A DNA stretch of 64,000 bases from Clostridia bacterium (GCA_017517745.1 JAFWYJ010000040.1:18453-82452), one strand, 5' to 3'. Counted from the stretch's first letter, positions 1 through 27,781 are shown. Numbers and translations: made by a program. The notes: generated by a model not told the origin, from the sequence alone.

Positions 1-986
1 AATTCTGCGCGGCAACGGGATGTGACGCAGAAGCAATGAAGGACGATCCCGAATGTGCCGCTTGGTTCAGTGAGAAGATCGAGAAGGCAAAGATCGCGCT
101 GACACAGAAGCAATCCACCTCGCTGACTCCTTCCTTTGAGGGAAGCAAGGCTAAGGTTGAGATCACCAGAGAGAAGTTTGATGAGATCACCAGGGGTCTG
201 TTCGACCAGACCATTTATCTTGTTGACCAGATGCTCAATGACAAAGGCATGAACATCGTGACCGACATCGATGAGATCATCCTCGTGGGCGGTTCTACCA
301 GAATGCTCCAGATCGAGGAGGGACTCCAGCTCCACTATAACAAGCCCATTTCCAAGTTTGACCCCGACAAGGCGGTTTCCAACGGTGCGGCACTGGTTGC
401 AAGCGGTGCAAGCCTTGAGGAAAACCTGGATATGCCTCCCGTAATGCCCGCAGGCGGCGACGCTTTCGGCGGCTTTGACAGCCCCAGCCTCGGTGGCGGA
501 AGTACCTTCGAGGACAAGAGCGGAAACACCAACCAGATCGTTGAGGTTTGCACCAAGTCTTACTGCCTCAGATATTACAACGGCGGCAAGGAGACCTTCA
601 TCAACCTGGTCAAGAAGGATGAGCCCAAGCCCGCGATCGGAACGACCAAGACGATCATTCCCGGTCTGGTGCTTGGTGGCGGTGATTCCAACGGAATGAC
701 CAACGAAGTTGCTCTTCTGATCATGGAGAATGACAGCCGTGACGATCACGTGGAGCGCGAGAACTGCGTGGAGCTTTACGAAGAGGTTCCGATTATGCTT
801 GCAGAGCCCGTATCCGCGTCCTCTCAGGTTGAGATTCAGCTTTACGTCAACATCAGTGGCGAGTTGAAGCTGACCTTGATCGAGACTGCAACCGGCAGAC
901 AGTACGAGATGATCCCCGTTCGTAAGGGCGGCGATACCAACAGTATCGGTATGGATGCTGCAACCGGATTTACTTTGGTGGGCTAA
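1..986 (+). CDS. Non-canonical Hsp70/DnaK-family protein, C-terminal portion (5' end outside window)
   Basis: The frame is open back to base 1, so the ATG at 36 is internal. Hsp70 nucleotide-binding-domain motifs are present: IILVGGSTRMLQI and DPDKAVSNGAALVA. A Gly/Pro-rich linker follows, then a short beta-rich domain (VEIQLYVNISGELKLTLIETATGRQYEM) resembling the Hsp70 SBD-beta. There is no helical lid or EEVD tail. Confidence 0.8.
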   Translation, partial: FCAATGCDAEAMKDDPECAAWFSEKIEKAKIALTQKQSTSLTPSFEGSKAKVEITREKFDEITRGLFDQTIYLVDQMLNDKGMNIVTDIDEIILVGGSTRMLQIEEGLQLHYNKPISKFDPDKAVSNGAALVASGASLEENLDMPPVMPAGGDAFGGFDSPSLGGGSTFEDKSGNTNQIVEVCTKSYCLRYYNGGKETFINLVKKDEPKPAIGTTKTIIPGLVLGGGDSNGMTNEVALLIMENDSRDDHVERENCVELYEEVPIMLAEPVSASSQVEIQLYVNISGELKLTLIETATGRQYEMIPVRKGGDTNSIGMDAATGFTLVG

Positions 987-1041: not shown

Positions 1042-1074
1042 TTCACTATTTATTAATAAGTTGAGGTGTTTTTC

Positions 1075-3192
1075 ATGGGAATCAGCGTTGGAATTGATTT
1101 GGGAACAACTTACTCGGCGGTTGCCACCTTTGACAAGGCAACGGGAACCGTCAAAATTCTGAAGAATGACATCGGCGAGGACTGCACGCCCTCGGTTGTC
1201 TGCATTGAGGACGGCGAGGTGACCATCGGTCAAGCGGCGAAGGATCTGCAGGCGGCGGGCAACGTCAACACTGCGGCGTTCTACAAGAGCATGATGGGCG
1301 AGCCGAACTTCAGCTGTTACATCGATGGGCAAAGCTTTTCCGCGGAGAATCTTTCCGCAGCGTTTCTGCGCGGCCTCAAACAGGCTGTCGAGGAGGCGAA
1401 CGGAGTCACGATCGACAGCGCGGTCATCACGGTTCCCGCCTATTTCAACGAGGCACAGCGCCAGGCAACCCTTCGTGCAGGAGAGGCGGCAGGCATGCGG
1501 GTTCTCAAGCTCATCAACGAGCCGACCTCGGCAATCATTGCCTACGGTCTGACGGGGCAGGGAGAGAAGAACGTCATGGTCTATGACCTTGGCGGCGGAA
1601 CCTTTGACGTCACCATTGCACACATCCGCGGCGCAAACGTGGACGTGCTTGCCACCAACGGCAACCATCAGCTCGGCGGCAAGGATTGGGATGCTGTGAT
1701 CGTGGAGGAGGTCGCTTCTCGTTTTTACGATCAATTCGGAGTCAACGTTCGTGACTACGAGGACGTCATGAACGAGCTGGCGGTCAAGTGCGAAAAGACC
1801 AAAAAGGTGCTCACCAACGTTCCCGTGACACAGATCAGCGTGCAATGCGAGGGCTTTTACGGAAAATACGACATCTCAAGAGAATTCTTTGAAGAAAGAA
1901 CCCAAACGCAGCTGGCGGAAACCACGCTGCTCATTCAAAAATGCTTTGATGAGATCTCTCGGCAGAGCGGCAAGTCCTTTGGCTGGACGTCGCTGGATGA
2001 GGTGGTTCTCGTCGGAGGCTCGACCAGAATGCCGCAGATCAGCAAAATGATTACAGAGGCCTTTGGTCGTCCTCCCATCATCATTGGCAACAAGGTGGAT
2101 ACCATCGTTGCCTCGGGTGCGGCAATGCAGGCAAGCATTTGCAACGAAGGCTCGATCACGCTCAGCGCGGCTTCGGGCTTTGTCAGAAACACCAATACCG
2201 CTCCCGGCGCTCCGGCTCCCACCCTCACGATCTGCGGCGATGCGATCAAGGACGTGACTTCTCACAGCCTTGGCATGCTTGCCTTTTTGGAAGAGAAGAG
2301 CCTGGATCTGATCAACAGTATCATCATCCCCAAAAACTCCGCGATCGGAGAAGCACAGGGCAGATGGTACAAATCACACGCGGATAAGATCTGCGTACAT
2401 GTTCTGCAGGGCGAGTCCGACAATCCTTACGATTGTACCTTCCTCTATTCCTTCACCATCACCGGCTTGAAGGCAGGGCAGGAGAATCGCGTGCAGGTCT
2501 TCTTCCTCTACAACCCCAGCGGTATGGTAGAGGTCAGTGCGCAAGATGAAATGGGAAGAGATCTCCCCGTCAAGAAGGAGCAGGGTGCAGGTCTTGCGCT
2601 TTCGGCAGGGCGCTCTCTGGATCAGATCATCGCAGAGGTTCGCCGCGAGAAGGAAGAGGCGATGCGCAGACCTCCTCTGGACGTCACGTTCGTTGTGGAT
2701 ACGTCGGGAAGTATGGAAGGTCGCCCCCTCGATGAGGCAAAAAAATCGATTCAAGAATTCTTGGCGCAGCTTGATCAAACCGATGCCAAGATCTCGATTC
2801 TTAAATTCTCCGATTCTTGCGATTGGAAGTGTTATCAAACAGAAATCAGCAAGCGTCCTTTTATTCAAAAGGCAATTCAATCTTTGGAGGTGGACGGCGG
2901 AACCACTGCTACACCGCTTGGAGATTTCGCCAAAAAGCAGGGATTCCATAAGATTGACGGAAAGATTCTCGTGGTCTTGACCGACGGTGAATGGGAACAT
3001 CAGGGATTTGAGATCATGTCGGCGCAATCCCTCAAGAAAAAGGGCGTGATCATTTACGCCGTTGGAATTGGCGATGCCGATTTCGATTTTCTCTCGAAGA
3101 TCGCCTCGAACGGCGGCGCGAAGAAGATCGATTTGAGCAGCTTGGCCGACACGTTCCGCGCGATCGCCTCCAGCATCGCAACACAATCTTAA
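1075..3192 (+). CDS. Hsp70-family ATPase fused to a C-terminal von Willebrand factor A (vWA) domain
   Basis: The ATG at 1075 sits 8 nt after TGAGG; the track start at 1066 is a GTG. Hsp70 motifs: GIDLGTTYS, DLGGGTFDV, VLVGGSTRMPQI. An SBD-beta-like segment follows (VHVLQGES...VQVFFLYNPSGMVEVSAQD). The C-terminal vWA has a full MIDAS: DTSGS (DxSxS), TATPLG, LVVLTDGEW. Confidence 0.85.
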   Translation: MGISVGIDLGTTYSAVATFDKATGTVKILKNDIGEDCTPSVVCIEDGEVTIGQAAKDLQAAGNVNTAAFYKSMMGEPNFSCYIDGQSFSAENLSAAFLRGLKQAVEEANGVTIDSAVITVPAYFNEAQRQATLRAGEAAGMRVLKLINEPTSAIIAYGLTGQGEKNVMVYDLGGGTFDVTIAHIRGANVDVLATNGNHQLGGKDWDAVIVEEVASRFYDQFGVNVRDYEDVMNELAVKCEKTKKVLTNVPVTQISVQCEGFYGKYDISREFFEERTQTQLAETTLLIQKCFDEISRQSGKSFGWTSLDEVVLVGGSTRMPQISKMITEAFGRPPIIIGNKVDTIVASGAAMQASICNEGSITLSAASGFVRNTNTAPGAPAPTLTICGDAIKDVTSHSLGMLAFLEEKSLDLINSIIIPKNSAIGEAQGRWYKSHADKICVHVLQGESDNPYDCTFLYSFTITGLKAGQENRVQVFFLYNPSGMVEVSAQDEMGRDLPVKKEQGAGLALSAGRSLDQIIAEVRREKEEAMRRPPLDVTFVVDTSGSMEGRPLDEAKKSIQEFLAQLDQTDAKISILKFSDSCDWKCYQTEISKRPFIQKAIQSLEVDGGTTATPLGDFAKKQGFHKIDGKILVVLTDGEWEHQGFEIMSAQSLKKKGVIIYAVGIGDADFDFLSKIASNGGAKKIDLSSLADTFRAIASSIATQS

Positions 3193-3204
3193 CGGGAGTT
3201 CACG

Positions 3205-6200
3205 ATGGCAAATAATATCAGAACACAAGAAGAATACAAAAAGCCGGAATATAACTATTTCATTGCCCTGAAGCTGGGCATCAAGGAAAAGAATACGGCA
3301 AACATCGAAAAAAGCATCAGCAAGACCTGCGGAAGCACCAAGGGAGACCTGATTTCCCGCCGTCTCATCGAGCTTCGACAGGACATGACCGAGATCATGG
3401 TCAACGATGCAACCTACAATCCGCAAACCAACAGCTACGTCCCCAATTCGGGAGGTCGCCAGAAGGAGGCGGATGCGGCAAAGGCACTCAAACTTGAGGA
3501 ATTGATGAAGCTCGTTTACAATATGTGTATGAGCAACGGACGTATTTTCAAGAGTACCCTCAACGAGCTTTGCATTGCCGCCAATAAAACGGCAGAATAT
3601 TTTACGCTTGACGAGCTGATCAAAAAATGCGATTCGCTCAAGGCGCAGGGAATCAAGTTCATCGACAACATGACCTCGGCAATTCCGTTCGCGGAGTTCC
3701 AGACGGCAGGTCAGTTGCTCGAAACCCCTCCCGCCAAGGCAGACCTTTACGAGTTTTTGGGCGTGAGTAAGACCGCGTCCGTTGCGGAGATCAGTGCCGC
3801 GAGAGCAAACGCGTATAACGAGGCGCAGAAAAAGAGCGACCTCAAGATCAAGCAGTCGGTTTCGGCTCTTTGCGCAAAGGTTGACGCCATTCTCACCAAG
3901 AGCCCCGATATCCGTAAGCAGTATGACTATTACATCCAGGTCAAGGAAACCGTATGGGATCAGTTCAAGATGAGAAAGACCTACGGTGCCAAGAGTATTT
4001 CGCTGGATGAATATTATCAGTTTGCGGAAGAGCTGCAGCGCGTGCTTTCCATCAAAATCGACGAGGTCGAGGAGATGCTGGGCGCGGGACTGAAGTTCTA
4101 CGGTCTGGTAGTCGCGGGTGACGAGGGTGACGGAAGTGCCAAGGAAAAATTGGGCATTCCCGAGCTGGAGCTTTGTCCCTATCCCGATTGCGGTCAGATC
4201 TATCGCGCGGGAGCCAAGGCATGCCCGCATTGCGGCAAGCCGCTTGAAATCCTTTGCTGGAACTGCGGCAATCAGGTGCCCTTTACCGTCAAGCACAAGA
4301 CTTGTAGCCATTGCGGCGCCGCGCATGACGGCAAGGATCGCTATGAAGCGGTTTCGCGCGAGATCGATGCGCTTTTGCGCGCGAGCGTGTGCGATATTCC
4401 GAAGCTGCAGGCTGCACTCATGACTTTGAAAAATCTCGTTCCCAACGATAAGGGGGATGGAAAATCCACCATTTCCAAGAAGGTGGCGCAATGCGAAAAA
4501 ACCATTGCGGATAAAATCAAAGAAGAGGAAACAACGGGCGAGAAGTACCGCGCCGACGAAAAGCTGGTGCAGGAACAGATCGCTCTGAAGAATCTGATGA
4601 CCGCGGCGAGCATGGTGAGCAATATGCGCCGTGCATATCCCACCTACAACGCGGCAAACACCCAAGCGCTCGCCAATTCGATTCAGGCGACGATCTCCAA
4701 GGCGCAGGCAGGACTTGAACAGGTCAAGCGTTATGCGGCGCAGGGGAATGAGGCCATGGTGATCGATTCCGCCTCCAAGGTGCTGGAGATCTGTGCCGAC
4801 TATCTTGAGGCGAAGCAGTTCCTCCAAAAGTTCCCGCCTAAGACGCCCTCTGCCCCCGTGATCTCTGCGTCGGATGACGGCAAGGTTCATCTGGAGTGGA
4901 GAAAAGAAGGGGATCAGAAGATGGTGACCTACACGATCGTCAAAAAGATCGGAACGGCACCGCAGAACGTCAAGGACGGCGCTCTGGTCGAGGAAAATCT
5001 CGAGATCAACTTCTATGAGGACAGCAACATTGTTTCCGCCACGCCCTATCACTACGCGGTATATGCTACCCGTTGCGGCGTGAATTCCGGATTGCTCGTG
5101 TTCCCGTCGTCCATTCAGGTGTTTGGAGACGTTGCCAACATCCAGCAGGAGATCCTGCCCGGCAAGATCAGCGTGCATTGGGATGCACCGCAGAATTTTG
5201 CAAGCATCGACGTCTGGAAGAAGGAGGGAACTATTGCTCCTCTCAAGGCGGGTGACGGCACCAAGCTTTCCGGCACGAAGGACGGCTTCGTAGACGAGGA
5301 TTGCAAGGGAGAAAACAGCTACCTCATCATTTGTACCTACAAGACCGCAGAGGGTGTGAAGTGCTCTCGCGGAATTACGCATACCTTTAAGAAATACGAC
5401 ATGATCGAGCCTCTGCGCGAGGTCAAGCTGACACAGAACACACAAACCGAGTTCTGTCTGTCCTGCAAGAATCCTTCGGACGAGAAGCTCCGTGTGGTGT
5501 TCAGCAAGAACAAGCTTCCTTGCCGCGCCGACACCGTTTTGCAGATGATGGATTACAACACCTATATCAAGGGTGGAACCACATTGCCGATCTTCTACGA
5601 TAATGACGGCGCGACCTGCTTCAATCTGCCTGCGAACGCGATGGGATACGTGTACGTGTTGGTTTACAACGATCAGCTCTTCTGCGCATCGGCTCCGATC
5701 GCCGCCAATGCGCTCGCCGGCATCACCAGCCTCTCCTATGAGGAGCAGAACGCGGGCGTGAAGATCAAGGGTAACCTGAATCCCGCAACCAAGCGCGTGA
5801 TCGCCAAGATCAGCGATACGGCTTTTGCAAAATCGATCAATGACAAGGGCGAGCAGATCGCCATCACCAAAGAACAGTTTGAGAGAGACGGCGGTTTTGT
5901 GCTCAAGCTCAAGACGAATGCTTCGCACTATATTTCGGTGTTTGCCGAATTGGATCTGGAGGGACATGTCACCACGTCCTACGGCACGCCGTTGGAGAAT
6001 GTGATCGACCTGCGCGAAAAGGTTACCGTGCAGTATTGCATGGAATTCACCGTGTCGCAATCCAAGCCTTTCAAGATGACGCTGAAATTTGCGGCGGATC
6101 AGCCCGTGGATCTTCCCGACATGCTGTTGATGAAAGGCGTACCGCGGCCTCTGAACAAGAGCGCCGGAACGCTGGTGGAGCGCGTGAGCGGTGTGGCACT

Positions 6201-6342
6201 GAAAAAAGGCCTCTTCTCCTCGCGTTATACGGCAAAGATCACCCTGACCGTCCCTGCAGACAGACCGAACATGAGGTTCATTCTGTTTACGGCTGACGAT
6301 CACGTCAAACATGCCAAGCTCAAAGAGGTTACGTCTCTGTAA
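3205..6342 (+). CDS. 1045-aa multidomain protein: degenerate J-like domain (no HPD), double zinc ribbon, coiled coil, FN3-like beta domains
   Basis: Residues ~178-243 (DLYEFLGVSKTASVAEISAARANAYNEAQKKSDLK...ILTKSPDIRKQYDYY) follow the J-domain helix I-IV pattern, but the HPD position reads KKS. The zinc ribbons are CPYPDC..CPHC and CWNC..CSHC (nt ~4174-4317). FN3-like signatures are PSAPVISASDDGKVHLEW...YHYAVYA and ISVHWDAP...YLIICTY. The gap to the upstream gene is 12 nt. Confidence 0.75.
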   Translation: MANNIRTQEEYKKPEYNYFIALKLGIKEKNTANIEKSISKTCGSTKGDLISRRLIELRQDMTEIMVNDATYNPQTNSYVPNSGGRQKEADAAKALKLEELMKLVYNMCMSNGRIFKSTLNELCIAANKTAEYFTLDELIKKCDSLKAQGIKFIDNMTSAIPFAEFQTAGQLLETPPAKADLYEFLGVSKTASVAEISAARANAYNEAQKKSDLKIKQSVSALCAKVDAILTKSPDIRKQYDYYIQVKETVWDQFKMRKTYGAKSISLDEYYQFAEELQRVLSIKIDEVEEMLGAGLKFYGLVVAGDEGDGSAKEKLGIPELELCPYPDCGQIYRAGAKACPHCGKPLEILCWNCGNQVPFTVKHKTCSHCGAAHDGKDRYEAVSREIDALLRASVCDIPKLQAALMTLKNLVPNDKGDGKSTISKKVAQCEKTIADKIKEEETTGEKYRADEKLVQEQIALKNLMTAASMVSNMRRAYPTYNAANTQALANSIQATISKAQAGLEQVKRYAAQGNEAMVIDSASKVLEICADYLEAKQFLQKFPPKTPSAPVISASDDGKVHLEWRKEGDQKMVTYTIVKKIGTAPQNVKDGALVEENLEINFYEDSNIVSATPYHYAVYATRCGVNSGLLVFPSSIQVFGDVANIQQEILPGKISVHWDAPQNFASIDVWKKEGTIAPLKAGDGTKLSGTKDGFVDEDCKGENSYLIICTYKTAEGVKCSRGITHTFKKYDMIEPLREVKLTQNTQTEFCLSCKNPSDEKLRVVFSKNKLPCRADTVLQMMDYNTYIKGGTTLPIFYDNDGATCFNLPANAMGYVYVLVYNDQLFCASAPIAANALAGITSLSYEEQNAGVKIKGNLNPATKRVIAKISDTAFAKSINDKGEQIAITKEQFERDGGFVLKLKTNASHYISVFAELDLEGHVTTSYGTPLENVIDLREKVTVQYCMEFTVSQSKPFKMTLKFAADQPVDLPDMLLMKGVPRPLNKSAGTLVERVSGVALKKGLFSSRYTAKITLTVPADRPNMRFILFTADDHVKHAKLKEVTSL

Positions 6343-6354
6343 TCTCAACAAACG

Positions 6355-6415
6355 CTCCGCCGCGCCCGCAGAGCGGGGCGGCGGAGGAATACCGATGAAA
6401 GGATGGAGAACATGA
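6355..6415 (+). promoter_or_regulatory. GC-rich hairpin overlapping a GGAGG, plus a 6-codon mini-ORF whose stop overlaps an in-frame ATG of the next gene
   Basis: CTCCGCCGCGCCCGC (6355-6369) pairs with GCGGGGCGGCGGAG (6373-6386) with one bulge, and no U-tract follows. GGAGG (6383-6387) lies 7 nt upstream of the ATG at 6395. That ATG opens MKGWRT-stop, and its TGA (6413-6415) overlaps the ATG at 6412-6414, which is in frame with the 6403 ORF. Confidence 0.3.
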
Positions 6416-7749
6416 TTACCGGAAACACCACTGTTCGCGTGATCGAGGGAAACCGATTGAACGATACCGTGCCCGAGGCGGCAAAGCAACGTCAACAGCC
6501 AACCCCGTCCAACCCTCGTCCGATCAACATACTTTTCAACGGTAAGAACGGGAAGGGAATGCCCGATCAGTTTGTCCTGACCGAGCGATTGCTCAGCCAG
6601 CATCTGATGCTCATCGGAGGCATCGGTTCGGGCAAAACCAACACCTTCAATCAAATCATGCAAAACATCGCGCCGCAGCTTTCCGCGCGGGACGTGATGA
6701 TTATTTTTGATACCAAAGGCGATTTTCTCAAGGAGTTTTATGCTCCCGGAGACATCGTCATCAGCAATGATACCACAGCAAGAGGAGCAAACGGCCCCGA
6801 CTATTGGAACATTCTCGCAGAGCTTGAGGATGACGATTCGCTTGAGGTCAACTGTGTGGAGATCGCCACGGCGCTCTTTGCCGACAAGCTGAGCGAGGGC
6901 GGAGATTCCTTTTTCCCAAACGCGGCAAAGGATTTGCTCACCGCCGTGCTGTATCATTTCGTCAAAAACCGTGCTCAGATTCGATCGAGCAACAAAACGC
7001 TCTCGGAATGTCTCAAAGGTGTGAATCACGAATGGTTTTTGGCTTTGCTGAATAAATATCCGCAGTTCAAGGCGATGAAGAGTTACATTCCGCAAGACGC
7101 GCCCGGTCAGGCGATCGGCGTGCTGGCGGAGCTTCAGCAGGTGGTGCGCCAGGTGTTCATCGGCAACTTTGCCAAAGAGGGAACACTTTCCGTGCGCAAC
7201 CTCGTGCGTCGCAAAGGCGGAAAAAAGATTTTCATTGAATATGATATCGGTATCGGCGGAATGCTTACACCGATTTACAGTTTGATGTTCGATCTGGCAA
7301 TCAAGGAGGCACTCTGCCGTTCCAAGAGCGACGGAAACGTGTTTTTCGTGGTGGACGAGTTCAAGCTTCTTCCCAACCTCAAGCACATTGACGACGCAGT
7401 CAACTTCGGCAGAAGCCTTGGCATCAAGTTTATGATCGGCATCCAGAACGTGGATCAGATCATCAAGGCGTATGATGAGCACATGGCGTTGAATATCTTT
7501 TCGGGATTTCTCAATCAATTTGCCTTCAAGGTCAGTGATCATTCCACAAGAGAATATATCAAAGAGCGTGCGGGGATGAATCGCAAGCTCACAATGTATA
7601 AAACGGTAACCGTCCAGGAATCGATCGAGGGAGCAAACGTCATCGAAGACTGGGACGTGGGAAATCTGAAGTTGGGGCAGGCTGTGGTCATGCTCAACAG
7701 CGCGGAACCCTTCGTATTCGGTTTCCCCGAATTCATCGGCAGGAGTTAG
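6403..7749 (+). CDS. Soluble FtsK/HerA-superfamily P-loop ATPase resembling type IV coupling proteins (VirD4/TraG/TraD-like), without an N-terminal TM anchor
   Basis: Walker A is LIGGIGSGKTN and Walker B is FFVVDEFKLL. Other T4CP-like blocks: GPDYWNILAE, FFPNAAKDLL, IKFMIGIQNVDQI. No hydrophobic N-terminus is present. The start could be 6412 (see the mini-ORF feature). Confidence 0.7.
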   Translation: MENMITGNTTVRVIEGNRLNDTVPEAAKQRQQPTPSNPRPINILFNGKNGKGMPDQFVLTERLLSQHLMLIGGIGSGKTNTFNQIMQNIAPQLSARDVMIIFDTKGDFLKEFYAPGDIVISNDTTARGANGPDYWNILAELEDDDSLEVNCVEIATALFADKLSEGGDSFFPNAAKDLLTAVLYHFVKNRAQIRSSNKTLSECLKGVNHEWFLALLNKYPQFKAMKSYIPQDAPGQAIGVLAELQQVVRQVFIGNFAKEGTLSVRNLVRRKGGKKIFIEYDIGIGGMLTPIYSLMFDLAIKEALCRSKSDGNVFFVVDEFKLLPNLKHIDDAVNFGRSLGIKFMIGIQNVDQIIKAYDEHMALNIFSGFLNQFAFKVSDHSTREYIKERAGMNRKLTMYKTVTVQESIEGANVIEDWDVGNLKLGQAVVMLNSAEPFVFGFPEFIGRS

Positions 7750-7751: not shown

Positions 7752-8966
7752 ATGGGATTCTTATTTGGAAACGGCGGCATTTTTGCCGCGTCCCCCGGCA
7801 GGGGTAACGTTGTGAGCCTCGACACGAGCCTCGGAAACACCATTCTCGTGGGCAATTCGCCCAGGGGCATTGAATCCGTGATGCGAAATTATCTCATCGA
7901 CGCGCTCAATAAGGGCAATGCGGTGGTGATTTTGCGCAACGGAGAGAACGGTTTTTCGGCATATCCGAGCGTGGTGAATATGCGCGGCAGAATCTATGAC
8001 GTTGACGTCGCAGAGGATCTTGGAGCGGAGCAGATCGATGGCTTTTCCGGTTATTCCGACCGTGAGCAGGACATGGCCATGCTGCAAACGATGGAGATGT
8101 ATAATCAGATCGATCCTGCAAAGAAGATGAAGTTCCAAAACTATATTTCCATTGTCCGCAGCCTGCTGGCCACGCGCAAAAAACGCTTGCGCCTGAACGA
8201 GCTGTATCAGTATAACGTTGATGAAGTGGAGATGCTCAATGCCTCCGCTCCCATCCCCGATGCGGAAAAGATGCGCAACGAGCGTTTCTTCAACAGTTTC
8301 CGCGCGGACATTTTTGAGTTTGAAACCTATTTTTATGAGTTTTCCAACAATGCCGTCGGACACATCCTCTCGGGCGCGAAATCGTTGGAGACGATCTTCG
8401 CGAGCAAGAACGTGATTGAAATCTCTTTTGATTTCAAGTCGCATGAAACCGACTCCAACGTCCTGCTTCACGCGCTGGTCAACGTGCTTGGAAAATTCAA
8501 CTGTGCGGCAGCCGGCAAAAGAGGCTTGACGGTGGCGGTCAACGAGATTCCCAACGAGAGCTTGGAGCAATCGGGACTGCAAAAGCTGATCAAAAATACG
8601 CCCAATTGCAACGTGATCTATTCGGTCGCGGACATTTCCAAACTGATCGAAAAGACCAACGATTGGATTGAGTACGCCGACAGCTATTTCTTCCTGAGAC
8701 AGACTTCGGACAAGAACAAGGAGTTCAGCTCAAGCTTCTTCGGTACATACGAAAAACAAAAGGTGAGCACCAATCAAAGCCGTTCCACTCCCTCCTTCTG
8801 GGATCGCCTGAACAATCGCGGCGCTGTGACCAGCACCAGCGGAACCACGGTGACCACCGAAAAAGAACGTGTTTATCAGCCCGACGATTTTGCGGTGATG
8901 CCCGAAAACGAAGCGATTTATTTCTTCAAAAAAACCAATTCGCATAGCCGCATCAGGCTGTTCTGA
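7752..8966 (+). CDS. Paralog-like partner of the upstream ATPase with degenerate Walker motifs (predicted catalytically inactive)
   Basis: It starts 2 nt after the upstream stop. The Walker-A position reads VGNSPRGIES (no Lys-Ser/Thr) and the Walker-B position reads LTVAVNEIP (no Asp-Glu). The C-terminus ERVYQPDDFAVMPENEAIYFFKK resembles the T4CP C-terminal block. The paralogy call was made by eye. Confidence 0.55.
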   Translation: MGFLFGNGGIFAASPGRGNVVSLDTSLGNTILVGNSPRGIESVMRNYLIDALNKGNAVVILRNGENGFSAYPSVVNMRGRIYDVDVAEDLGAEQIDGFSGYSDREQDMAMLQTMEMYNQIDPAKKMKFQNYISIVRSLLATRKKRLRLNELYQYNVDEVEMLNASAPIPDAEKMRNERFFNSFRADIFEFETYFYEFSNNAVGHILSGAKSLETIFASKNVIEISFDFKSHETDSNVLLHALVNVLGKFNCAAAGKRGLTVAVNEIPNESLEQSGLQKLIKNTPNCNVIYSVADISKLIEKTNDWIEYADSYFFLRQTSDKNKEFSSSFFGTYEKQKVSTNQSRSTPSFWDRLNNRGAVTSTSGTTVTTEKERVYQPDDFAVMPENEAIYFFKKTNSHSRIRLF

Positions 8967-8980
8967 AAGGGAGGGTTCTC

Positions 8981-9688: not shown

Positions 9689-9745
9689 GCCCGCTATCTT
9701 GAAAATTTCGCATCCCTCATCAGATTCTTCCAAGGAGGATGGCAA

Positions 9746-10456: not shown

Positions 10457-10516
10457 GCCCCCCTGAGTCAATCGAAAATCCAAATCAAGCAAATCATATA
10501 GAAAGAGGAAAAAACC

Positions 10517-11623
10517 ATGGCAAAATTCACATGCCCGTACTGTTATGCCACTCATACGCTGGATACCTGCGGAATGAAGTGCTCCTATAACATCACGGGT
10601 ACCGACGTCACCTGCAAGAAAAACCTTCCAAAGGATGCTGAAGGTTGGATCCCTCAGCTCTACAAAAAGCAGTGCCTCGCGTGCAAGGATGCGAGAAAGC
10701 GCATCTATTGTCCCACCGTGGAAAAGGAAATTCCCACCGAGTTCCTCTCGGGCGAGAGTCTTCCCATCGCACTCGTGGGCGCAAAGGCATCGGGCAAATC
10801 CAACTACATCGGCGTGCTGATCGATGAGGTCAAAAGAAAGATGGCACGGAGCTTTAACACCACGCTCAGCGTGAGCTGTGACGAGACCTCCCGTCGATTC
10901 TACGATCAGTTCTACAAGATCCCGCTCTACACACACGGAGAGGTGGTCGCCGCCACCGACGCTGGAGAAATGCCTCCCATGATCTTCCCGTTGCGCTTTA
11001 TGGATCGCAAGGATCGCATCATCAACAGCGCGACGCTGACCTTCTATGACACCGCAGGAGAGAATCTTGACTCGGATGAGGAAATGCTGATCTACAATCG
11101 CTACATCCCCAATGCAAAGGGAATCATCCTGCTTCTTGACCCGCTGCAGGTACCCGGTATTCGTCAGCAACTCGAGGGAAAAATGCAGCTTCCTGCCATG
11201 AACACCGACGTGACCGAGGTTCTCAGCCGCGTGGTCGAGAATATCCGAAGCGTCAAGAACATCAAGGGAACCATCAACATCCCGCTGGCTCTGGCATTCA
11301 CCAAGCTCGACGTGCTGGAAAAGTTTGACATCATTTCTGAGGACAGCCTCTTGCGAGAGGAATCTCGCCATCTTGAGCTGGGCGCGTTCTCCATGTCGGA
11401 TTTCGACAGCTGTACCATTCAGATGAGAGACATTCTGGAAAACTGGCTGGATGCCGAGTTCACCCAGTTGGTCAAAAACTTCTCCAAGTACGCTTTCTTC
11501 GGCGTGTCGGCATTGGGAGAAGTGCCTGAGAATAACACTGTTTCTTCCATCAAGCCCAAGCGTGTGCTTGACCCGCTGCTTTGGCTGTTGGCGGAAAACA
11601 AATACATCAAGAAAGTGAAGTGA
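10517..11623 (+). CDS. Zinc-ribbon-fused TRAFAC-class GTPase (soluble)
   Basis: N-terminal Cys clusters are CPYC...C..C and CLAC...C. The G1 motif is GAKASGKS, G3 is FYDTAGE (DxxG), and G4 is FTKLD (an NKxD variant). RBS is AGAGGAAAAAACC-ATG. Confidence 0.8.
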   Translation: MAKFTCPYCYATHTLDTCGMKCSYNITGTDVTCKKNLPKDAEGWIPQLYKKQCLACKDARKRIYCPTVEKEIPTEFLSGESLPIALVGAKASGKSNYIGVLIDEVKRKMARSFNTTLSVSCDETSRRFYDQFYKIPLYTHGEVVAATDAGEMPPMIFPLRFMDRKDRIINSATLTFYDTAGENLDSDEEMLIYNRYIPNAKGIILLLDPLQVPGIRQQLEGKMQLPAMNTDVTEVLSRVVENIRSVKNIKGTINIPLALAFTKLDVLEKFDIISEDSLLREESRHLELGAFSMSDFDSCTIQMRDILENWLDAEFTQLVKNFSKYAFFGVSALGEVPENNTVSSIKPKRVLDPLLWLLAENKYIKKVK

Positions 11624-11630
11624 TTCATTG

Positions 11631-14318
11631 ATGAAAGCGGCTCAGTATATGTACACGTCTTGGAAAAATGCCCCCAATCACGGATTCAGTCTCTATTCGA
11701 TGACGCCGGGACTCTCCGCGACCGACAGCGAGGACATTTCCAAAATGATGAAGTACGTTTTGCAGCCCGGAATGCCGCGTGATCCTTCCGATGAGGAAAT
11801 CGCGTCTGTTCTGCCGCGAAACGTCGCGTTCTTCCCACTTTCCTCGGGTAGGTACTGCCTCGCACAGGCGGGCTACGTGGGACGTGAATACCGAGGCTTT
11901 GAGGACGGCGGCCGTCTTGGAAACTATCTTTTACACGCCTATATTTTGGACGATGTGAAGGACGTTCTTCCCATGTCTTTCGTGGGAGACGACATTTTCC
12001 GCTACGACCTGACGAAGGAGGAGTGGCAGGCAACCAATCCCGCGCCGCTTCCCATTGTGGAGCTTGCTCCCGTCGGAAAGATGCTGACCCAAAGCGAGAT
12101 CGCGTCGTTCTTCGATGCAACTCGCATCGAAACGCTGGAAAAGCTGGTTCAGGCGATCATCACTGCATCGGCAAACGGAAAAACCGTCTTTTTCAATGAC
12201 GAGAATGCAAACATGCGCTTTTGGTACAAGGCTTTGGCGGTCTGTCTGCCGGTCAGCCTTTCGAAAACGGCGTTCAACACGTACTCGCTTTCGATGAGCC
12301 TGCCTGTCGGTGTTTCTCCTTGCTGCAAGCTCAGCCTCATGAACGTTTCGGTCAGCAAGGATCCCGCCATTCCGATCACCGCGCCCAACCTCGCGGACGA
12401 GACGCGAAAGGGCAACTTTGTCATCGACTTGGTGCGTGGAGCTTATAGCCCCGTTACGGTCGGTTCTTATGCCAAGGCTGTTTGCGCGAAATTCAAGGCG
12501 AATCTCTTTGACGCGGTCAATTTCGCGAAGAAGATCGACGTTACGGCGGCAAGATATTCCTGCACCGTCGATCAGGCGATGGATATCCTCTGCTTCTCCG
12601 AGGGCAAGCTGGATCAGTTCCCGAGCATTGGTGACGTGCTGAGGGTGATCCGTCTGCTTGGCGACGGCACGCCGGATGCACAGATGCAGAACAGCATCAC
12701 CCGATTTGCCGAGCGCATTCTGACGGGCGCATATCCTTACGGAAATGAGCTTTGCGAGGCAATCAAAAACGTGGTTTATCCCAACGTTGCCGATGATTGG
12801 AAGCAGAAGTTGCTCGCTTACGTGATGCAGACCGCACTCTCCATGAATGCACCGAGCAAGGCAGCGTTCGCAAAGGCGGTCGATTCCGCGATCCCGTGCG
12901 ATAAATTGACGGCGGCACGTTATATTTACGATAACAAGATCTATGACCGCTTGTTGGGCGGAGATCTTTATCAGATTCACTATCTGGCAACCATGACTGT
13001 CGAGAATTATACCGCGCTGCAGACGGTATATGGCAAGCTTCCCACCATGATGCTGAATACGGTGGTGTCCAAGTACATCGGACAGAACGATTTCGCTTCG
13101 TTGGATGAGCTGGTAGCGCTCGCTCCCGGACTCACGGGCAGTGCGATCGCAGTGGTGATCTGTCACTATGCAGAGAAGAAGACGCTCGGTCAGATCTCGG
13201 TGGATGCCTTCTTCCGTGTCCTTCCCAAGGCAACGCTTTCGAGCGATGCTCTGGTCACTCTCATGACCGAGGCAATCGCGCTGTGGGGAAGGGATGCCGA
13301 TTTCTGCCGAAAGTACGAGGCGTTTGCTGCGACGAATGCGCAGGCGGATGCCGCACTCCGCGCAATTCCCGCGTGTGTGCCGTTCTTTGACGAGATGGAG
13401 GTGCATCGCTTCCGCTCGAGCCGCCCGACGATGGACGGACTTTGCAATTACTTCATGCGGATCTATGCCAAGAATCCCGATGACACGGCGTTCGAAGCAA
13501 AGCTGACCGAATATTTGAAGCCTTTGGATTGGAAGACTTGTCTGCGTGAATCGATCACGGTTTACTCCAGATGCTTCAAGCCGAAAAAAGGCTGGACTCC
13601 GAACGATTTGCGCATCGTGCAAGTCTTGCGCTGGAATGTGTTGGAAAAACCGGAGCGCCGTGAGTTTTCCAAGGCGCTTCTGTCGGAAGTAAATCTCCGC
13701 ACGATGGTGGACGGATTCGTGAAGGATACCGAGATGAGAGGTTGCGGCAAAGATGCCTTCTATGCGATGATCTCCGCCTTTGCCGAGATCATTGCCAAGC
13801 CTGCACTCCAGGCAGTGAAGGCCATCGAGACACAAACGCTTCTCGCGGGACTTCTGGTCTCCAAGGAAACGGCGGCAATCTTCAATCAAAACCTTGCCGA
13901 GGAGTATCTCATCTACGTCACAGAGGCAATCAAGGCGTCCCGAAAAGAGGATCATCCCTTGTTGACAACGGCACTCCTTCCTCTGACAGCCGATGAGCCT
14001 TCCTTCAAAAAGGCGATCGCCGCGATTCTTTCTTCCAACGAAAAGGATGCGCAGAAGCGCAGTTTGCGACTGCGGGCAGTATTGCTTCTGCACGTTTCCA
14101 CCGATGCCAAGCCGCACAAGGCGCTCAAGGCAGTATTTGAGGATGACTTCCTCAATTGCTCCAAGAAGGAACGCTTGAACGTGCACAAGGCGACGGCAAA
14201 GGCGACACAAGACAAAGATCTGTTTGCAAAGAGTCTGGAATATGTGACAGACTTCAATGCAAAGCACAAAACCGGTTTCTTTGACAAGCTGAAGGGCTTG
14301 TTTGGAAATAAAAAATAA
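11631..14318 (+). CDS. 895-aa mostly helical protein of unknown function; candidate GTPase-associated (GAP1-like) scaffold
   Basis: The ATG at 11631 follows the GTPase stop by 7 nt. The N-terminal pattern QYMYTSW...HGFSLYSMTPGLS and GRLGNYLLHAYIL recalls, from memory, the N-terminal module of GTPase-associated protein 1 families. This functional label is tentative and was not verified by any search. Confidence 0.6.
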   Translation: MKAAQYMYTSWKNAPNHGFSLYSMTPGLSATDSEDISKMMKYVLQPGMPRDPSDEEIASVLPRNVAFFPLSSGRYCLAQAGYVGREYRGFEDGGRLGNYLLHAYILDDVKDVLPMSFVGDDIFRYDLTKEEWQATNPAPLPIVELAPVGKMLTQSEIASFFDATRIETLEKLVQAIITASANGKTVFFNDENANMRFWYKALAVCLPVSLSKTAFNTYSLSMSLPVGVSPCCKLSLMNVSVSKDPAIPITAPNLADETRKGNFVIDLVRGAYSPVTVGSYAKAVCAKFKANLFDAVNFAKKIDVTAARYSCTVDQAMDILCFSEGKLDQFPSIGDVLRVIRLLGDGTPDAQMQNSITRFAERILTGAYPYGNELCEAIKNVVYPNVADDWKQKLLAYVMQTALSMNAPSKAAFAKAVDSAIPCDKLTAARYIYDNKIYDRLLGGDLYQIHYLATMTVENYTALQTVYGKLPTMMLNTVVSKYIGQNDFASLDELVALAPGLTGSAIAVVICHYAEKKTLGQISVDAFFRVLPKATLSSDALVTLMTEAIALWGRDADFCRKYEAFAATNAQADAALRAIPACVPFFDEMEVHRFRSSRPTMDGLCNYFMRIYAKNPDDTAFEAKLTEYLKPLDWKTCLRESITVYSRCFKPKKGWTPNDLRIVQVLRWNVLEKPERREFSKALLSEVNLRTMVDGFVKDTEMRGCGKDAFYAMISAFAEIIAKPALQAVKAIETQTLLAGLLVSKETAAIFNQNLAEEYLIYVTEAIKASRKEDHPLLTTALLPLTADEPSFKKAIAAILSSNEKDAQKRSLRLRAVLLLHVSTDAKPHKALKAVFEDDFLNCSKKERLNVHKATAKATQDKDLFAKSLEYVTDFNAKHKTGFFDKLKGLFGNKK

Positions 14319-14339
14319 AATAAAGAAAGAGGTAGTATC

Positions 14340-14528
14340 ATGGAAATCATTGGACACATTTTAATGATTATTCTTTACATTTGTTACCTACTGTTCATGA
14401 CCTTGTTGCTCATCGCGATCGCAGCGATCACAACGGCAGTCGGTGTGGGTATGGGACTTGTAAAGGGAATCAACCACGCGCTCGAAATTTATTTCGGAAC
14501 ATTAATTGAAGAGATTGGAGATAGATGA
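14340..14528 (+). CDS. 62-aa small membrane protein
   Basis: RBS is AGAAAGAGG. One or two hydrophobic helices are present (ILMIILYICYLLFMTLLLIAIAAITTAVGVGMGL). It lies in operon context. Confidence 0.55.
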   Translation: MEIIGHILMIILYICYLLFMTLLLIAIAAITTAVGVGMGLVKGINHALEIYFGTLIEEIGDR

Positions 14529-14532
14529 CGCT

Positions 14533-16023
14533 ATGAGAAAACAACCGGCAAAAGTAAATTATTTCTTCGGCGGTGCGTATCGCACTCTGATCAAAACCAT
14601 TTTGGGGTCTTTTGCGAAGACCTTCGGACTTATCACCGTTCTTGCACCTTTACCCTTCAAAGCATTTTTCCTGTTTATCAAAGCATTCGTAGCACTTGTC
14701 GTTTCGATTTTCAGTCTGGATTTCCGCGACATTTGGGACAATACCAAGGATACCGTGTTTGCTCTCTGGAGCTTTACTTACACGCTCCCCACGTTCCTCA
14801 GCGTTTTGATCCTCACCCCCACCATGTGCTTGATCCTCAGCGCAATTCAGCTGGTGATCTTCCTTGGTTTGATGTTCACCATCTACGTGGTCTACACCAT
14901 CACCTATCTGCTCGACCTGCTCTTCCGTAAGATCAAGCAGATCTCCAACACCTGCCGCTACTGCCAGCGCAAGATCAAGAATCCCATTTATTTCTGCCCG
15001 AACTGCGGAGTTGAGCACGATATGCTCATTCCTTCCAAGTACGGTGTGTTCAAGCGCAGATGTGAGTGCGGTGCAAAGCTTGGCACCACCTTCCTGAGCG
15101 GACGTGAGAAGCTTGAAAGTAAGTGTCCTTACTGTGAGAGCGGTATCGCGGATACGTCGCACGTGGATATCACCGTTCCCGTTGTGGGCGGTCCCAGCGC
15201 AGGTAAGACCTGCTTCATTCATATGGCAATTTCTGATATTGAGCAGAATTCCATGACCGATCACAAGCTGGAATATGAATATGATCCCGGCATTGATGAT
15301 GAGTTCGCAATGAACATGAGCAACCTCAAGCAGGGCTTGGCACCGAATAAGACCAGTGACATGCGTCTGCGTTTCTACAGCTTCTATCTCAAGCCCAAGA
15401 AGGGAATCAAGCATCTGATTTCGCTTTGTGACGTCGGAGGAGAGATCTACGACGACAGTGAATCTCTCGGTACGCAGGCTGCTCTGACACACTCCAATGC
15501 ATTCCTTATGGTCATCGACCCGCTGTCCATGATGGATTACCGCAAGGAGCTGGAGCAAAACGGTGTCGACATTTCCAAGTTCGGACCCAGCTCCAAGCCG
15601 ATTGACGAGGTGCTCAGCTTGCTGATTACCACGCTCGAGAATATGTGTAACATCTCCGCAAAGGATATGCTCAACCGTGATTTGGCGGTTGTATTCTCCA
15701 AGGGAGACCTTCCCGGTCTGGAGGAAAAGATCGGCAAGACTGCAGTAGAGGAGTACATGACCTCTCATGCAGGCACCACCCGTCTGCAGGCGCAGAATGC
15801 GGTTTGCGAACAGTTCCTCAAGGAATATGATGAATTCGGCTTCCTCAATGCCGTGAAGTCCAAGTTCAAGGTGGTGCAGTTCTTTGCAAGCAGCGCACTT
15901 GGACACGCCGCTGACGGAAGTGCCTTTGAATCCAATGGCGTATCCGAGCCCGTCTACTGGATCGTCGATAAGATCAGCGCAAGCATCGATCTGACCGAGG
16001 TTTGGGACGAAAAGCGCGGATAA
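14533..16023 (+). CDS. Membrane-anchored zinc-ribbon TRAFAC GTPase, paralogous in architecture to 10517-11623
   Basis: The ATG at 14533 is 4 nt after the upstream stop; the track start at 14506 is a TTG. The N-terminus has ~4 TM helices. Zinc ribbons are CRYC..CPNC and CECG..CPYC. G1 is GGPSAGKT, G3 is LCDVGGE, and G4 is FSKGD. Confidence 0.8.
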   Translation: MRKQPAKVNYFFGGAYRTLIKTILGSFAKTFGLITVLAPLPFKAFFLFIKAFVALVVSIFSLDFRDIWDNTKDTVFALWSFTYTLPTFLSVLILTPTMCLILSAIQLVIFLGLMFTIYVVYTITYLLDLLFRKIKQISNTCRYCQRKIKNPIYFCPNCGVEHDMLIPSKYGVFKRRCECGAKLGTTFLSGREKLESKCPYCESGIADTSHVDITVPVVGGPSAGKTCFIHMAISDIEQNSMTDHKLEYEYDPGIDDEFAMNMSNLKQGLAPNKTSDMRLRFYSFYLKPKKGIKHLISLCDVGGEIYDDSESLGTQAALTHSNAFLMVIDPLSMMDYRKELEQNGVDISKFGPSSKPIDEVLSLLITTLENMCNISAKDMLNRDLAVVFSKGDLPGLEEKIGKTAVEEYMTSHAGTTRLQAQNAVCEQFLKEYDEFGFLNAVKSKFKVVQFFASSALGHAADGSAFESNGVSEPVYWIVDKISASIDLTEVWDEKRG

Positions 16024-16032
16024 ATTCAAACG

Positions 16033-17109
16033 ATGCTACAAAAGGAATATTGGCGCACAAAGCTTTCCCCGGCGGATCAGAAGACCTATGATCTGATTCG
16101 CGCGGGGCTGGCATCCCAGCGGGAGCGAACCGCCATTCCGACCTTTTCGGGAGATCCGAACGGCATTTTGCCGATCTATCAGGCGATCTGGAACGATCAC
16201 CCCGAACTCTATTGGCAGACCTATGCACCGGGCGTTGCGCAAGCGGCATCTTCGTTTGGCGGATTGTTTGGCTCGGGGGGCGCACCTCGGTTTGAGGTCA
16301 TCCATCCGACGCTTTATCAACCCAAGGAAACGGCAAGCATCAACGCGTCCATTCGGAACGTGCTTGCGAAGTTGGATGCGTTGAAGGCACAGCCAAAGAT
16401 CGATCAGATCATCGCCGCGATTCTGCATCTTGCAAAGCACGTAACCTACGAGATCAACAACGAAAAGAACCAGAATGCGGCGTCAGCCCTCTACTTCGGA
16501 CGTGCGCAATGCACGGGATATGCCAAGGCGTTCAAGCTGATGATGGATCATCTCGGCATCCCCTGCATATTGGTTTCGGGATCGGCAATGGCAAGAGAGG
16601 GGGATCCCTCCTCCATGGGACCGCATGCGTGGAATCTTGTTGAGCTGGACGGTGCTTGCTATCACCTGGACACCACCGCGGTGGCAGGAAACGTCGATGA
16701 CCGCGAGGATATTTTGGCAAGTCTGCTGTTTCTCGGAAAGGATGGGGATTTTGAGAAAAACCATGTGTGGGATCGCAAATCGATTCCCGCATGTCCCAAT
16801 CATTCTCCCTACCGTGCGACAAAGATCATTCCCTCACCGGGCGCAGGGATGCCCTCCAAGCCCGATGATGCAAGCGTTACGCAGATCTCCTCGCTTTACG
16901 AATTGCGGATGCTTTTGGCACGCGAGTTTGCAAGCGAGAAAACTTGCACGTTTGCTTTTCGCATGAACATGAGTCTGCCGACCGAAAAACTTCATCCTCA
17001 TGTGATGAGCAGCATTCAGGCAGCGCTCAATCAAGCAAAAAAATCATCGAGCGTAGAGACGACTTGTCAGGGAACGCTCTATCAGCTGACGAGAACCGTG
17101 AGCCCGTAA
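16033..17109 (+). CDS. Transglutaminase-like cysteine peptidase superfamily protein
   Basis: A Cys-His-Asp arrangement is present: RAQCTGYAKAFKLMMDHLGIP, then GPHAWNLVELDGACYHLDTT. This is typical of the transglutaminase core. Confidence 0.75.
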   Translation: MLQKEYWRTKLSPADQKTYDLIRAGLASQRERTAIPTFSGDPNGILPIYQAIWNDHPELYWQTYAPGVAQAASSFGGLFGSGGAPRFEVIHPTLYQPKETASINASIRNVLAKLDALKAQPKIDQIIAAILHLAKHVTYEINNEKNQNAASALYFGRAQCTGYAKAFKLMMDHLGIPCILVSGSAMAREGDPSSMGPHAWNLVELDGACYHLDTTAVAGNVDDREDILASLLFLGKDGDFEKNHVWDRKSIPACPNHSPYRATKIIPSPGAGMPSKPDDASVTQISSLYELRMLLAREFASEKTCTFAFRMNMSLPTEKLHPHVMSSIQAALNQAKKSSSVETTCQGTLYQLTRTVSP

Positions 17110-17141: not shown

Positions 17142-17414
17142 ATGGCAAAAGGAACAAATCGTGTTGTGGCAGGGGATTACCGCGGAGCAGAGGTGATCTG
17201 GAACGGAGCAGAGCTTCTAATCTCGGGATTGATGTTCACCGCCTGCAAGATAGACAAGACCACGGTCGCCCATCACACCCTGGTGGGACAGACGAGCGGT
17301 CTGTTCGGAACGAACGTCGGATACAACGTTTCGGTGGATTTCACCAACGGCAAAAGATCCATGCTTTCGCTCGACCAACAATATTATGATCTTTTGATCA
17401 GAATTTTATTTTAA
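17142..17414 (+). CDS. 90-aa small beta-rich protein, unknown function
   Basis: RBS is TGGAGAT. It lies in operon context and has no recognisable motif. Confidence 0.5.
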   Translation: MAKGTNRVVAGDYRGAEVIWNGAELLISGLMFTACKIDKTTVAHHTLVGQTSGLFGTNVGYNVSVDFTNGKRSMLSLDQQYYDLLIRILF

Positions 17415-19820: not shown

Positions 19821-19860
19821 AAAGGCATTCCCAAACGCGGGAATGCCTTTGCTGTTTTTA
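19821..19860. terminator. Intrinsic terminator closing the long operon (between convergent genes)
   Basis: AAAGGCATTCCC (19821-19832) pairs with GGGAATGCCTTT (19839-19850). It is followed by GCTGTTTTT. Confidence 0.75.
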
Positions 19861-26488: not shown

Positions 26489-26491
26489 ATA

Positions 26492-27742: not shown

Positions 27743-27781
27743 AAAAAAGACCTCCGTTTGTTTTTTCTGGTTGTCATATTT

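Follow-up and report, generated by a model that had tools for sequence, protein, structure and literature searches.

What function could join two zinc-ribbon GTPases, one soluble and one apparently anchored in the membrane, to the large protein and the small membrane peptide encoded between them? The question is raised by four consecutive open reading frames (ORFs) at positions 10517-16023 of a stretch of 64,000 nucleotides of DNA from a Clostridia bacterium (GCA_017517745.1, JAFWYJ010000040.1:18453-82452), which is referred to throughout, at its full length, as the window. A preliminary description had placed two GTPases, an 895-aa protein and a 62-aa peptide in this interval, and all four ORFs are present there on the + strand. 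Judged from its sequence, the locus is almost certainly a DO-GTPase/GAP1-N2 system, and probably one of the HSP70 type.

GAP1-N2-type DO-GTPase systems are predicted conflict systems, which Kaur, Burroughs, Iyer and Aravind (eLife 2020; PMC7159879) defined by computational means. The GTPases are described as TRAFAC enzymes with a Walker-B glutamate and, usually, two N-terminal zinc ribbons; of the two GTPases, the second typically has four N-terminal transmembrane (TM) helices and one C-terminal TM helix. GAP1 is encoded downstream of the GTPase, TM components are frequent, and a protein with FNIII repeats accompanies the GAP1-N2 systems. About 14% of the neighbourhoods show an HSP70 theme, consisting of Hsp70, GrpE, a second Hsp70-derived protein and a large DnaJ- or TPR-fused protein (PMC7159879). 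The Pfam families of this type of system are PF19993, PF20013 and PF20014.

Organization of the core genes

The first of the four genes (10517-11623, +) encodes a soluble DO-GTPase2 of 368 aa with N-terminal zinc ribbons, denoted here GTPase A; its ATG is preceded by the Shine-Dalgarno sequence AGAGGA. The GAP1-N2 protein (11631-14318, +; 895 aa) starts 8 nt past the stop codon of GTPase A and combines a conserved N2 and M module with an all-helical tail. The mechanical ORF spans 11628-14318 and would give 896 aa from a TTG; the next codon, ATG at 11631, is favoured as the start because it agrees with MKAxQxxYTSW, the consensus sequence at the N-terminus of homologues.

Between GAP1 and the second GTPase lies the ORF of the 62-aa hydrophobic membrane peptide (14340-14528, +), which has a good Shine-Dalgarno sequence and a single long hydrophobic stretch at residues ~5-40. 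Sequence homologues of the peptide are found in three of the related loci described below (L001, L002 and L005), and three others (L011-L013) have a called gene of 64-91 aa at the equivalent place. The last gene (14533-16023, +) encodes GTPase B, a membrane-anchored DO-GTPase2. Its mechanical ORF, 14506-16023, gives 505 aa from a TTG; the real start appears likelier to be the ATG at 14533, which gives 496 aa, since this codon lies 4 nt after the stop codon of the peptide and the orthologues have 495 aa.

The two GTPases

Both GTPases are assigned to the DO-GTPase2 family. The Pfam model PF19993 (DO-GTPase2) matches GTPase A with 28.6 bits and GTPase B with 45.9 bits (cut-off 27), as against 13.3 and 20.0 bits, respectively, for DO-GTPase1. 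With DO-GTPase2 the best match in both proteins, the GTPase subtype agrees with the N2-type GAP1 at the locus. GTPase A has 664 homologues, most of which carry PF19993 by precomputed annotation. The two window proteins are distant paralogues of one another (21% identity, E 3e-8).

The nucleotide-binding motifs are complete. In GTPase A the P-loop GAKASGKS occupies residues 88-95, DTAG(E) residues 178-182 and TKLD residues 262-265; in GTPase B (505-aa numbering) GGPSAGKT is found at 228, DVGG(E) at 309 and SKGD at 398. The Walker-B glutamate (DxxGE) is present in both, and E182 of GTPase A is nearly invariant among 68 homologues. Zinc ribbons precede the motifs: GTPase A has CxxC pairs at residues 6/9 and 53/56, together with C22, C33 and C65, which are invariant among homologues, and GTPase B has CxxC/CxxC and CxC/CxxC pairs following its N-terminal hydrophobic block. 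This reading of the motifs confirms the G1, G3 and G4 elements and the preceding ribbons that the preliminary description had given for both proteins.

That description had also called one GTPase soluble and the other a protein with about four TM helices, and GTPase B does contain four hydrophobic segments, within residues 19-131 of the 496-aa form, in a Kyte-Doolittle hydrophobicity scan, a crude measure compared with a topology predictor. The B-type orthologues have N-terminal hydrophobic blocks of 60-110 aa by the same scan.

The AlphaFold2 model of GTPase A (pLDDT 86, pTM 0.88) has a generic TRAFAC G-domain fold. Foldseek matches of this model are scattered over G-alpha, the EF-Tu family, Arl, Der, atlastin and YcjX, with at most 17% identity and TM-scores of at most 0.38; this spread across TRAFAC families indicates a shared fold and no specific family. 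Profile searches point in the same direction. Neither GTPase matches the dynamin, septin or Ras models of Pfam at E<=0.1, and none of the Pfam models of Era, Obg and other housekeeping GTPases reaches its threshold, MMR_HSR1 on GTPase A being sub-threshold at 17.9 bits (cut-off 21.9). NCBIfam has no model for the GTPases or for GAP1, and a sequence search of the PDB with both GTPases returned no GTPase relative at E<=10. The earlier view that these are not housekeeping GTPases is thus upheld by the Pfam search, in which DO-GTPase2 alone lies above its cut-off.

The GAP1 protein

The 895-aa protein had been likened to GAP1 from the look of its N-terminus, and the likeness is real: the GAP1-N2 model of Pfam matches residues 4-131 with 63.3 bits (cut-off 24). 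GAP1-M is matched at its expected position, residues 163-220, with a sub-threshold score of 19 bits (cut-off 24); in nine of nine aligned family members GAP1-M is matched, with a best E of 2.3e-20. The protein is thus laid out as a conserved N2 and M module, occupying residues 1 to ~270, and a fast-evolving tail of ~600 aa. Identity to the five closest homologues is 52-67% over the first 300 residues and 20-40% over the remainder.

In the AlphaFold2 model (pLDDT 78) residues ~270-885 form a continuous helical solenoid, modelled with a pLDDT of ~88. Foldseek matches of the model are generic TPR, HEAT and ARM solenoids only, with TM-scores of at most 0.19; the N2 domain is modelled at low confidence, and Foldseek offers no clue to its fold.

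The family is large. An exhaustive profile search with GAP1 gave 1,744 cluster representatives (at 50% identity), 440 of them at E<=1e-30, whereas word-indexed protein searches had returned just 7-9 proteins. A scan of genome contigs with the single GAP1 sequence gave no relative, and an alignment-based scan was required. Most family members have 850-950 aa, and many align with the window protein over the first ~220-350 aa alone.

Related loci and conservation of gene order

Thirteen related loci were compared with the window: two (L001 and L002) were reached through GAP1 homologues, eight (L003-L010) by a scan of representative genomes and three (L011-L013) through homologues of GTPase A alone. 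The order GTPase A, GAP1, membrane GTPase B is kept in 12 of the 13 (L001-L009 and L011-L013), the exception being the fragmentary L010, so that the linkage of GAP1 to the GTPases seen in the window recurs elsewhere, as the preliminary reading required. The P-loop, DxxGE and [ST]KxD motifs are present in 27 of 27 GTPases from the window and 12 related loci. Since the motifs are kept in all of these GTPases and the gene order is conserved across loci, the four-gene arrangement is not due to chance.

The conservation extends to the neighbouring genes. Most loci read, in order, GrpE (in some), Hsp70, an Hsp70::vWA fusion, a protein of ~1040 aa, an optional module with an ATPase resembling type IV coupling proteins (T4CP-like), GTPase A and GAP1; after GAP1 there follow a small peptide (in some), GTPase B, a transglutaminase-like protein and a TM protein. 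The optional module is present in six of the 14 loci only (the window, L001, L003, L005, L011 and L012). The genes that flank the operon vary from locus to locus and are housekeeping genes. The hosts of the eight scan loci are metagenome-assembled genomes (MAGs) of Oscillospiraceae, Eubacteriales, Lachnospiraceae, Clostridia and Erysipelotrichaceae, together with one of Tannerellaceae and one of Planctomycetia; the presence of the system in another phylum (Tannerellaceae, Bacteroidota) suggests horizontal transfer.

Some loci show rearrangements of their own. In the Tannerellaceae locus (L008, 7676-9976) GTPase A continues at its C-terminus into a long TPR array, giving a fusion protein of 766 aa. 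In L011 (15627-20278) the transglutaminase is replaced by a PPC/Ig-like protein of 639 aa, a third DO-GTPase2 (470 aa) and a C-type-lectin protein. Tandem duplications are seen in L013, which has two Hsp70::vWA genes (2582-6812), and in L007, which has two membrane B-type GTPases (4007-7128).

Components of the operon

The core genes lie within a same-strand operon of ~20 kb, which extends from before the start of the window to a terminator at 19821-19850. This operon, with its Hsp70, vWA and J-like parts, goes beyond the preliminary description, and its arrangement is one that has already been published.

The window opens within the first chaperone gene (1..986, +), the 3' part of an Hsp70 (Pfam HSP70, 1.5e-21) whose frame is open to base 3 and is cut by the window edge. 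Its orthologues have 537-559 aa and are preceded by a GrpE-like gene; GrpE followed by HSP70 is found upstream in the orthologous loci L002 (GrpE 30.7 bits, cut-off 25.8) and L013. By analogy, the GrpE of the window locus would be expected upstream of the window start. The second chaperone gene, Hsp70::vWA (1066..3192, +), is matched by Pfam HSP70 (1e-95) and VWA (1.2e-21); its product contains a nucleotide-binding domain, a beta-sandwich substrate domain and, at its C-terminus, a vWA domain whose MIDAS (DTSGS at residue 545) is intact.

Next comes a 1045-aa protein (3205..6342, +), found in 10 of the 13 related loci, with a J-domain-like segment at residues ~173-240, a double zinc ribbon at residues 327-371 (Pfam DZR, 28 bits), a helical middle and a beta-rich C-terminal half. 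A profile of its family, compared with solved structures, matches many J-domains over their full length, weakly (E 0.002-0.05). The C-terminal half may contain FN3-like repeats; residues 541-624 give non-significant matches to Fn3, titin and DSCAM (E 0.4-4), and the FN3 model of Pfam matches none of eight orthologues.

The optional module begins with the T4CP-like ATPase (6403..7749, +), which is related to TrwB, VirD4 and TraD (Pfam TrwB_AAD_bind, 143 bits, with further matches to T4SS-DNA_transf and TraG-D_C) and is 70-81% identical across orthologues. Walker A (GGIGSGKT) and Walker B (FFVVDEF) are both intact, and no TM segment is found in a hydrophobicity scan, indicating a soluble protein. 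Compared with the NCBIfam conjugation equivalogs it scores 89 bits against a cut-off of 521 for TraD, and 80 against 250 for CD1115. Its best matches in PADLOC are to mad8 of a methylation-associated defence system (1e-14) and then to HerA models, a hint that soluble ATPases of the coupling-protein type are found repeatedly in connection with defence.

The gene that always follows the ATPase encodes a 404-aa partner (7752..8966, +), which is probably a degenerate, inactive paralogue of it. This reading is based on sub-threshold matches to TraG-D_C in four of four orthologues (best E 5e-4) and on the Walker A position as read by eye, where the sequence GNSPRGIES has no lysine. BLASTP detects nothing between the two proteins, and a profile-profile comparison, with four sequences on each side, is uninformative. 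The module is completed by two tandem, paralogous genes for highly charged, probably coiled-coil proteins of 235 aa (8981-9688, +) and 236 aa (9746-10456, +), which are 43% identical to one another (E 2e-49) and match no family; L001, L011 and L012 carry a single copy, of 243-246 aa.

Downstream of GTPase B lies the gene of a transglutaminase-like protein (16033..17109, +; Pfam Transglut_core, 42 bits) with an intact Cys160-His198-Asp213 triad as read from the sequence, a candidate cysteine peptidase or crosslinker. It is found in nine of the 13 related loci, in eight by sequence search and in L012 by Pfam Transglut_core. The four distal genes encode a 90-aa protein (17142-17414, +), a 303-aa protein with several TM segments by TM scan (17430-18341, +), a 313-aa protein (18357-19298, +) and a 159-aa DUF1292 protein (19317-19796, +; Pfam, 24.2 bits) with two C-terminal TM helices; their orthologues stand in the same order in L001 and L002. 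The operon ends at a strong bidirectional terminator hairpin (19821..19850) with a stem of 12-13 bp.

Constant and variable parts

The components have diverged at different rates, as seen by comparison with the two closest loci, L001 and L002. GTPase A is 77% and 81% identical to its counterparts there, respectively, and the T4CP-like ATPase, absent from L002, is 81% identical to that of L001. Next come GTPase B (63% and 61%), Hsp70::vWA (65% and 71%) and the 1045-aa protein (66% and 69%). GAP1 (40% and 42%) and the transglutaminase-like protein (37% and 33%) are the least similar.

A neighbour-joining tree of the 27 G domains mentioned above separates clean A and B clades with matching internal topology. 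The congruence of the two clades, and the retention of the motifs in every member, indicate that the duplication is old, that both copies have been selected to stay active and that they co-evolve. The combination of conserved GTPases with a fast-changing GAP1 tail fits a constant switch joined to what may be a variable sensor or scaffold.

A proposed mechanism for the switch

We consider it probable that the locus is a complete HSP70-type GAP1-N2 DO-GTPase system acting through a switch of the following kind. GTPase A would be recruited to the membrane-bound GTPase B, and the nucleotide-dependent heterodimer formed in this way would serve as a threshold switch. The conserved N2 and M module of GAP1 would dock on the GTPase pair and read or set the switch, and the variable solenoid would bind the trigger or downstream partners. 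The change in GTP state could then be passed to a dedicated machine of Hsp70, GrpE and the J-like protein, together with the metal site of the vWA domain, for the ATP-driven assembly, remodelling or sequestration of target proteins at the membrane. The transglutaminase-like enzyme may process or crosslink a component, and the optional coupling-protein-like ATPase pair may add a translocase or sensor activity. The steps assigned to the switch, to GAP1 and to Hsp70 follow the proposals of Kaur et al. (2020), whereas our own suggestions concern the vWA site, the transglutaminase and the ATPase pair. A membrane recruitment switch is a plausible reading of the two GTPases, and the same inference was made by Kaur et al. 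for this type of system. Its service in a conflict (anti-invader) response near the cell membrane is slightly favoured.

A more specific proposal, which we regard as unlikely, is that the ATPase is a translocase of DNA or polypeptides under the control of the GTPase pair and the Hsp70/vWA proteins. If this were true, the locus would represent a new form of membrane surveillance that acts physically on incoming DNA or proteins and not through nucleases or toxins.

A conflict system or a machine of the cell envelope

Several observations weigh against the interpretation given above. In contrast with the published architecture, no C-terminal hydrophobic segment is found in GTPase B or in any of 14 B-type orthologues. 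The GAP1-C model of Pfam has no match on the window GAP1, and only two short, distant members of the family (P0008 and P0009) match it; the domain may be masked by divergence of the tail. The J-like domain of the 1045-aa protein has no HPD motif, which J-domains need for the canonical stimulation of Hsp70. Pfam scans of the window show no nuclease or toxin effector, no known defence neighbours and no mobile-element genes. PADLOC-DB v2 gives no match for GTPase A or GAP1 and no defence-model match to the core, the P-loop region of GTPase B having a weak match to Csx3 (E 2.5e-4), and the PHROGs contain no relatives of the GTPases or of GAP1. No experimental study of any DO-GTPase/GAP1 system was found in the literature, so that every functional step in the mechanism is one that we infer.

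The most serious alternative accepts the same parts and assigns them to a different task, namely a dedicated, GTPase-gated Hsp70 machine for the assembly, quality control or remodelling of some membrane or envelope structure in these bacteria of Clostridia type (for example of surface proteins, or of division or sporulation assemblies). The long, strictly ordered operon is dominated by chaperones (GrpE, two Hsp70s and the J-like protein), with a vWA domain, a transglutaminase-like enzyme and a number of membrane proteins among its other products; a conserved, chaperone-rich operon of at least 12 genes suits such a machine equally well. The housekeeping flanks, where no defence or mobile genes lie nearby, and the lack of PADLOC or PHROG matches and of any known defence or toxin domain are likewise in its favour. 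It fits less well with the rates of evolution, the GAP1 tail and the transglutaminase diverging much faster than the switch parts, or with the exchange of modules between otherwise syntenic loci. Nor would it readily account for related loci in phyla as distant as those represented by Bacillota, the Tannerellaceae MAG and the Planctomycetia MAG, in contexts that are all different. Fast divergence, exchange of modules and distant hosts are more often the marks of conflict systems that move horizontally than those of core machinery. An envelope machine is regarded as possible but rather unlikely.

The ATPase raises a second alternative, that of a conjugative element or type IV secretion system (T4SS) in which the GTPases are accessory to DNA transfer. 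The Pfam matches of the gene at 6403-7749, TrwB_AAD_bind with 143 bits among them, and partial NCBIfam matches to TraD and VirD4-like models are what such an element would provide. The ATPase, however, has no N-terminal membrane anchor and falls far below the equivalog cut-off (89 vs 521 bits), no relaxase, VirB4 or other T4SS gene is present among the ORFs of the operon and its flanks that were scanned, and the module is missing from eight of the 14 loci, which otherwise keep the operon where it is readable and are flanked by housekeeping genes. This origin is highly improbable.

The view that the GTPases are a divergent housekeeping or membrane-remodelling family (Era, Obg, EngA, FtsY, dynamin, septin or Ras-like) and that the GAP1 match is incidental, to which the sub-threshold MMR_HSR1 match and the appearance of Der, Arl, atlastin, G-alpha, the EF-Tu family and YcjX in the Foldseek results might point, has next to no probability left, as DO-GTPase2 alone passes its Pfam cut-off, the PDB sequence searches are empty, the fold matches are diffuse over many TRAFAC families at low identity and low TM-score, and both the Walker-B glutamate and the architecture of zinc ribbons and TM helices are traits that the family conserves; a housekeeping or dynamin/septin-like identity is effectively refuted by these profiles, searches and fold matches.

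Surroundings of the operon

A cytidylate-kinase-like gene (19874-20524, -; Pfam) converges on the terminator. The rest of the window is ordinary chromosome, with genes for D-Ala-D-Ala carboxypeptidase, PGI, topoisomerase, RF3 and histidine biosynthesis. Scanning the window against Rfam and for tRNAs gave no match, and a promoter scan performed no better than on shuffled sequence.

Long stop-free ORFs run antisense to the operon at 2374-7542, 8918-11371, 11931-14357 and 14650-16029 (all -; 1722, 817, 808 and 459 aa, respectively). Most likely they do not represent genes but are shadow ORFs that arise from codon bias. Long ORFs also overlap on opposite strands at 45610-47865 (+) and 44734-47985 (-), and at 26336-27829 (+) and 26492-27838 (-). 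The + strand members of these pairs, of 751 and 497 aa, have no Pfam match at 1e-4, and the true genes near 45 kb and 26 kb may be those on the - strand.

The G+C content dips to 0.434 at 28001-30000, as compared with 0.49-0.585 in all other 2-kb blocks of the window. The dip surrounds a gene with an XRE-type helix-turn-helix (27945-28472, -; HTH_3, 5e-15) and the intergenic DNA that lies upstream of an ORF for a hydrophobic protein of 229 aa; either a small insert of foreign origin or simply an AT-rich regulatory region could account for it.

Significance

DO-GTPase/GAP1 systems are widespread, as the size of the GAP1 family shows, and are known from computation only. The window provides a compact and apparently intact example, in which the motifs of the GTPases, the MIDAS and the transglutaminase triad are all preserved, and comparison of the loci delimits the full operon. 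It also separates the constant parts (the GTPase pair, the N-terminal module of GAP1 and the Hsp70 parts) from those that change fast or are swapped (the GAP1 solenoid, the transglutaminase and the T4CP-like module), and therefore indicates the pieces to express and mutate. Should the predicted role be true, the system would represent a form of bacterial immunity or stress response based on a G-protein switch and an Hsp70 chaperone of its own, with parallels in the G-protein and chaperone-based signalling of eukaryotes.

Comparison with known systems

At the level of the fold only, the GTPases share a G domain with helical insertions with G-alpha, YcjX and atlastin, which represent the dimerisation-activated and the helical-insert TRAFAC GTPases; the window GTPases differ from these in having a glutamate in place of the usual catalytic glutamine after DxxG. 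The accessory ATPase shares its ATPase domain family, with Walker A and B intact, with the coupling proteins TrwB, VirD4 and TraD. Unlike these, it is soluble, lacks T4SS partners, scores below the equivalog cut-offs and is paired with a putative degenerate paralogue.

The MoxR-vWA ternary (VMAP) conflict systems are analogous in their overall logic, in that an NTPase serves as the switch, a vWA domain binds peptides and a third component, large and constant, is combined with variable parts. In the window, however, the switch is a GTPase pair with Hsp70 and not a MoxR AAA+ ATPase, and the VMAP protein is absent. The N1-type systems, in which GAP1 has an N1 domain, use GTPases of the DO-GTPase1 type together with GASH and GAAD domains and with classical effectors such as SLATT and peptidases (PMC7159879). 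They share the same core logic of DO-GTPase and GAP1, from which the window differs in its subtype, with an N2 match of 63 bits and DO-GTPase1 matches of only 13-20 bits.

The closest counterpart is the HSP70 theme of the GAP1-N2 systems (PMC7159879). Both have a paralogous pair of DO-GTPases with the Walker-B glutamate and zinc ribbons, one member of which carries a TM block; a GAP1-N2 gene directly downstream of a GTPase; and small TM components. Hsp70, a second Hsp70-derived protein, GrpE (in the orthologous loci) and a large protein with a J-like domain, a putative one in the window, are likewise common to both, as is the occurrence in Firmicutes-type genomes. There are differences from the published description. 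The membrane GTPase of the window clade ends without a TM helix, and the tail of GAP1 is a helical solenoid of ~600 aa in which Pfam GAP1-C is unmatched. The second Hsp70 of the window keeps its beta-sandwich and is fused to vWA; the J-like domain of the 1045-aa protein lacks HPD, and the FN3 repeats are unconfirmed by sequence. The main text of that study does not name the T4CP-like ATPase, its putatively degenerate partner or the transglutaminase-like enzyme in connection with GAP1-N2 systems; coiled-coil proteins lay outside that search. These differences are variations within the kind and do not define a new one. As the type of system has already been described computationally, the locus is a clean new example of a predicted kind, with nothing new in kind: two DO-GTPases and a GAP1-N2 protein encoded together with Hsp70 chaperones, as in the published HSP70 theme.

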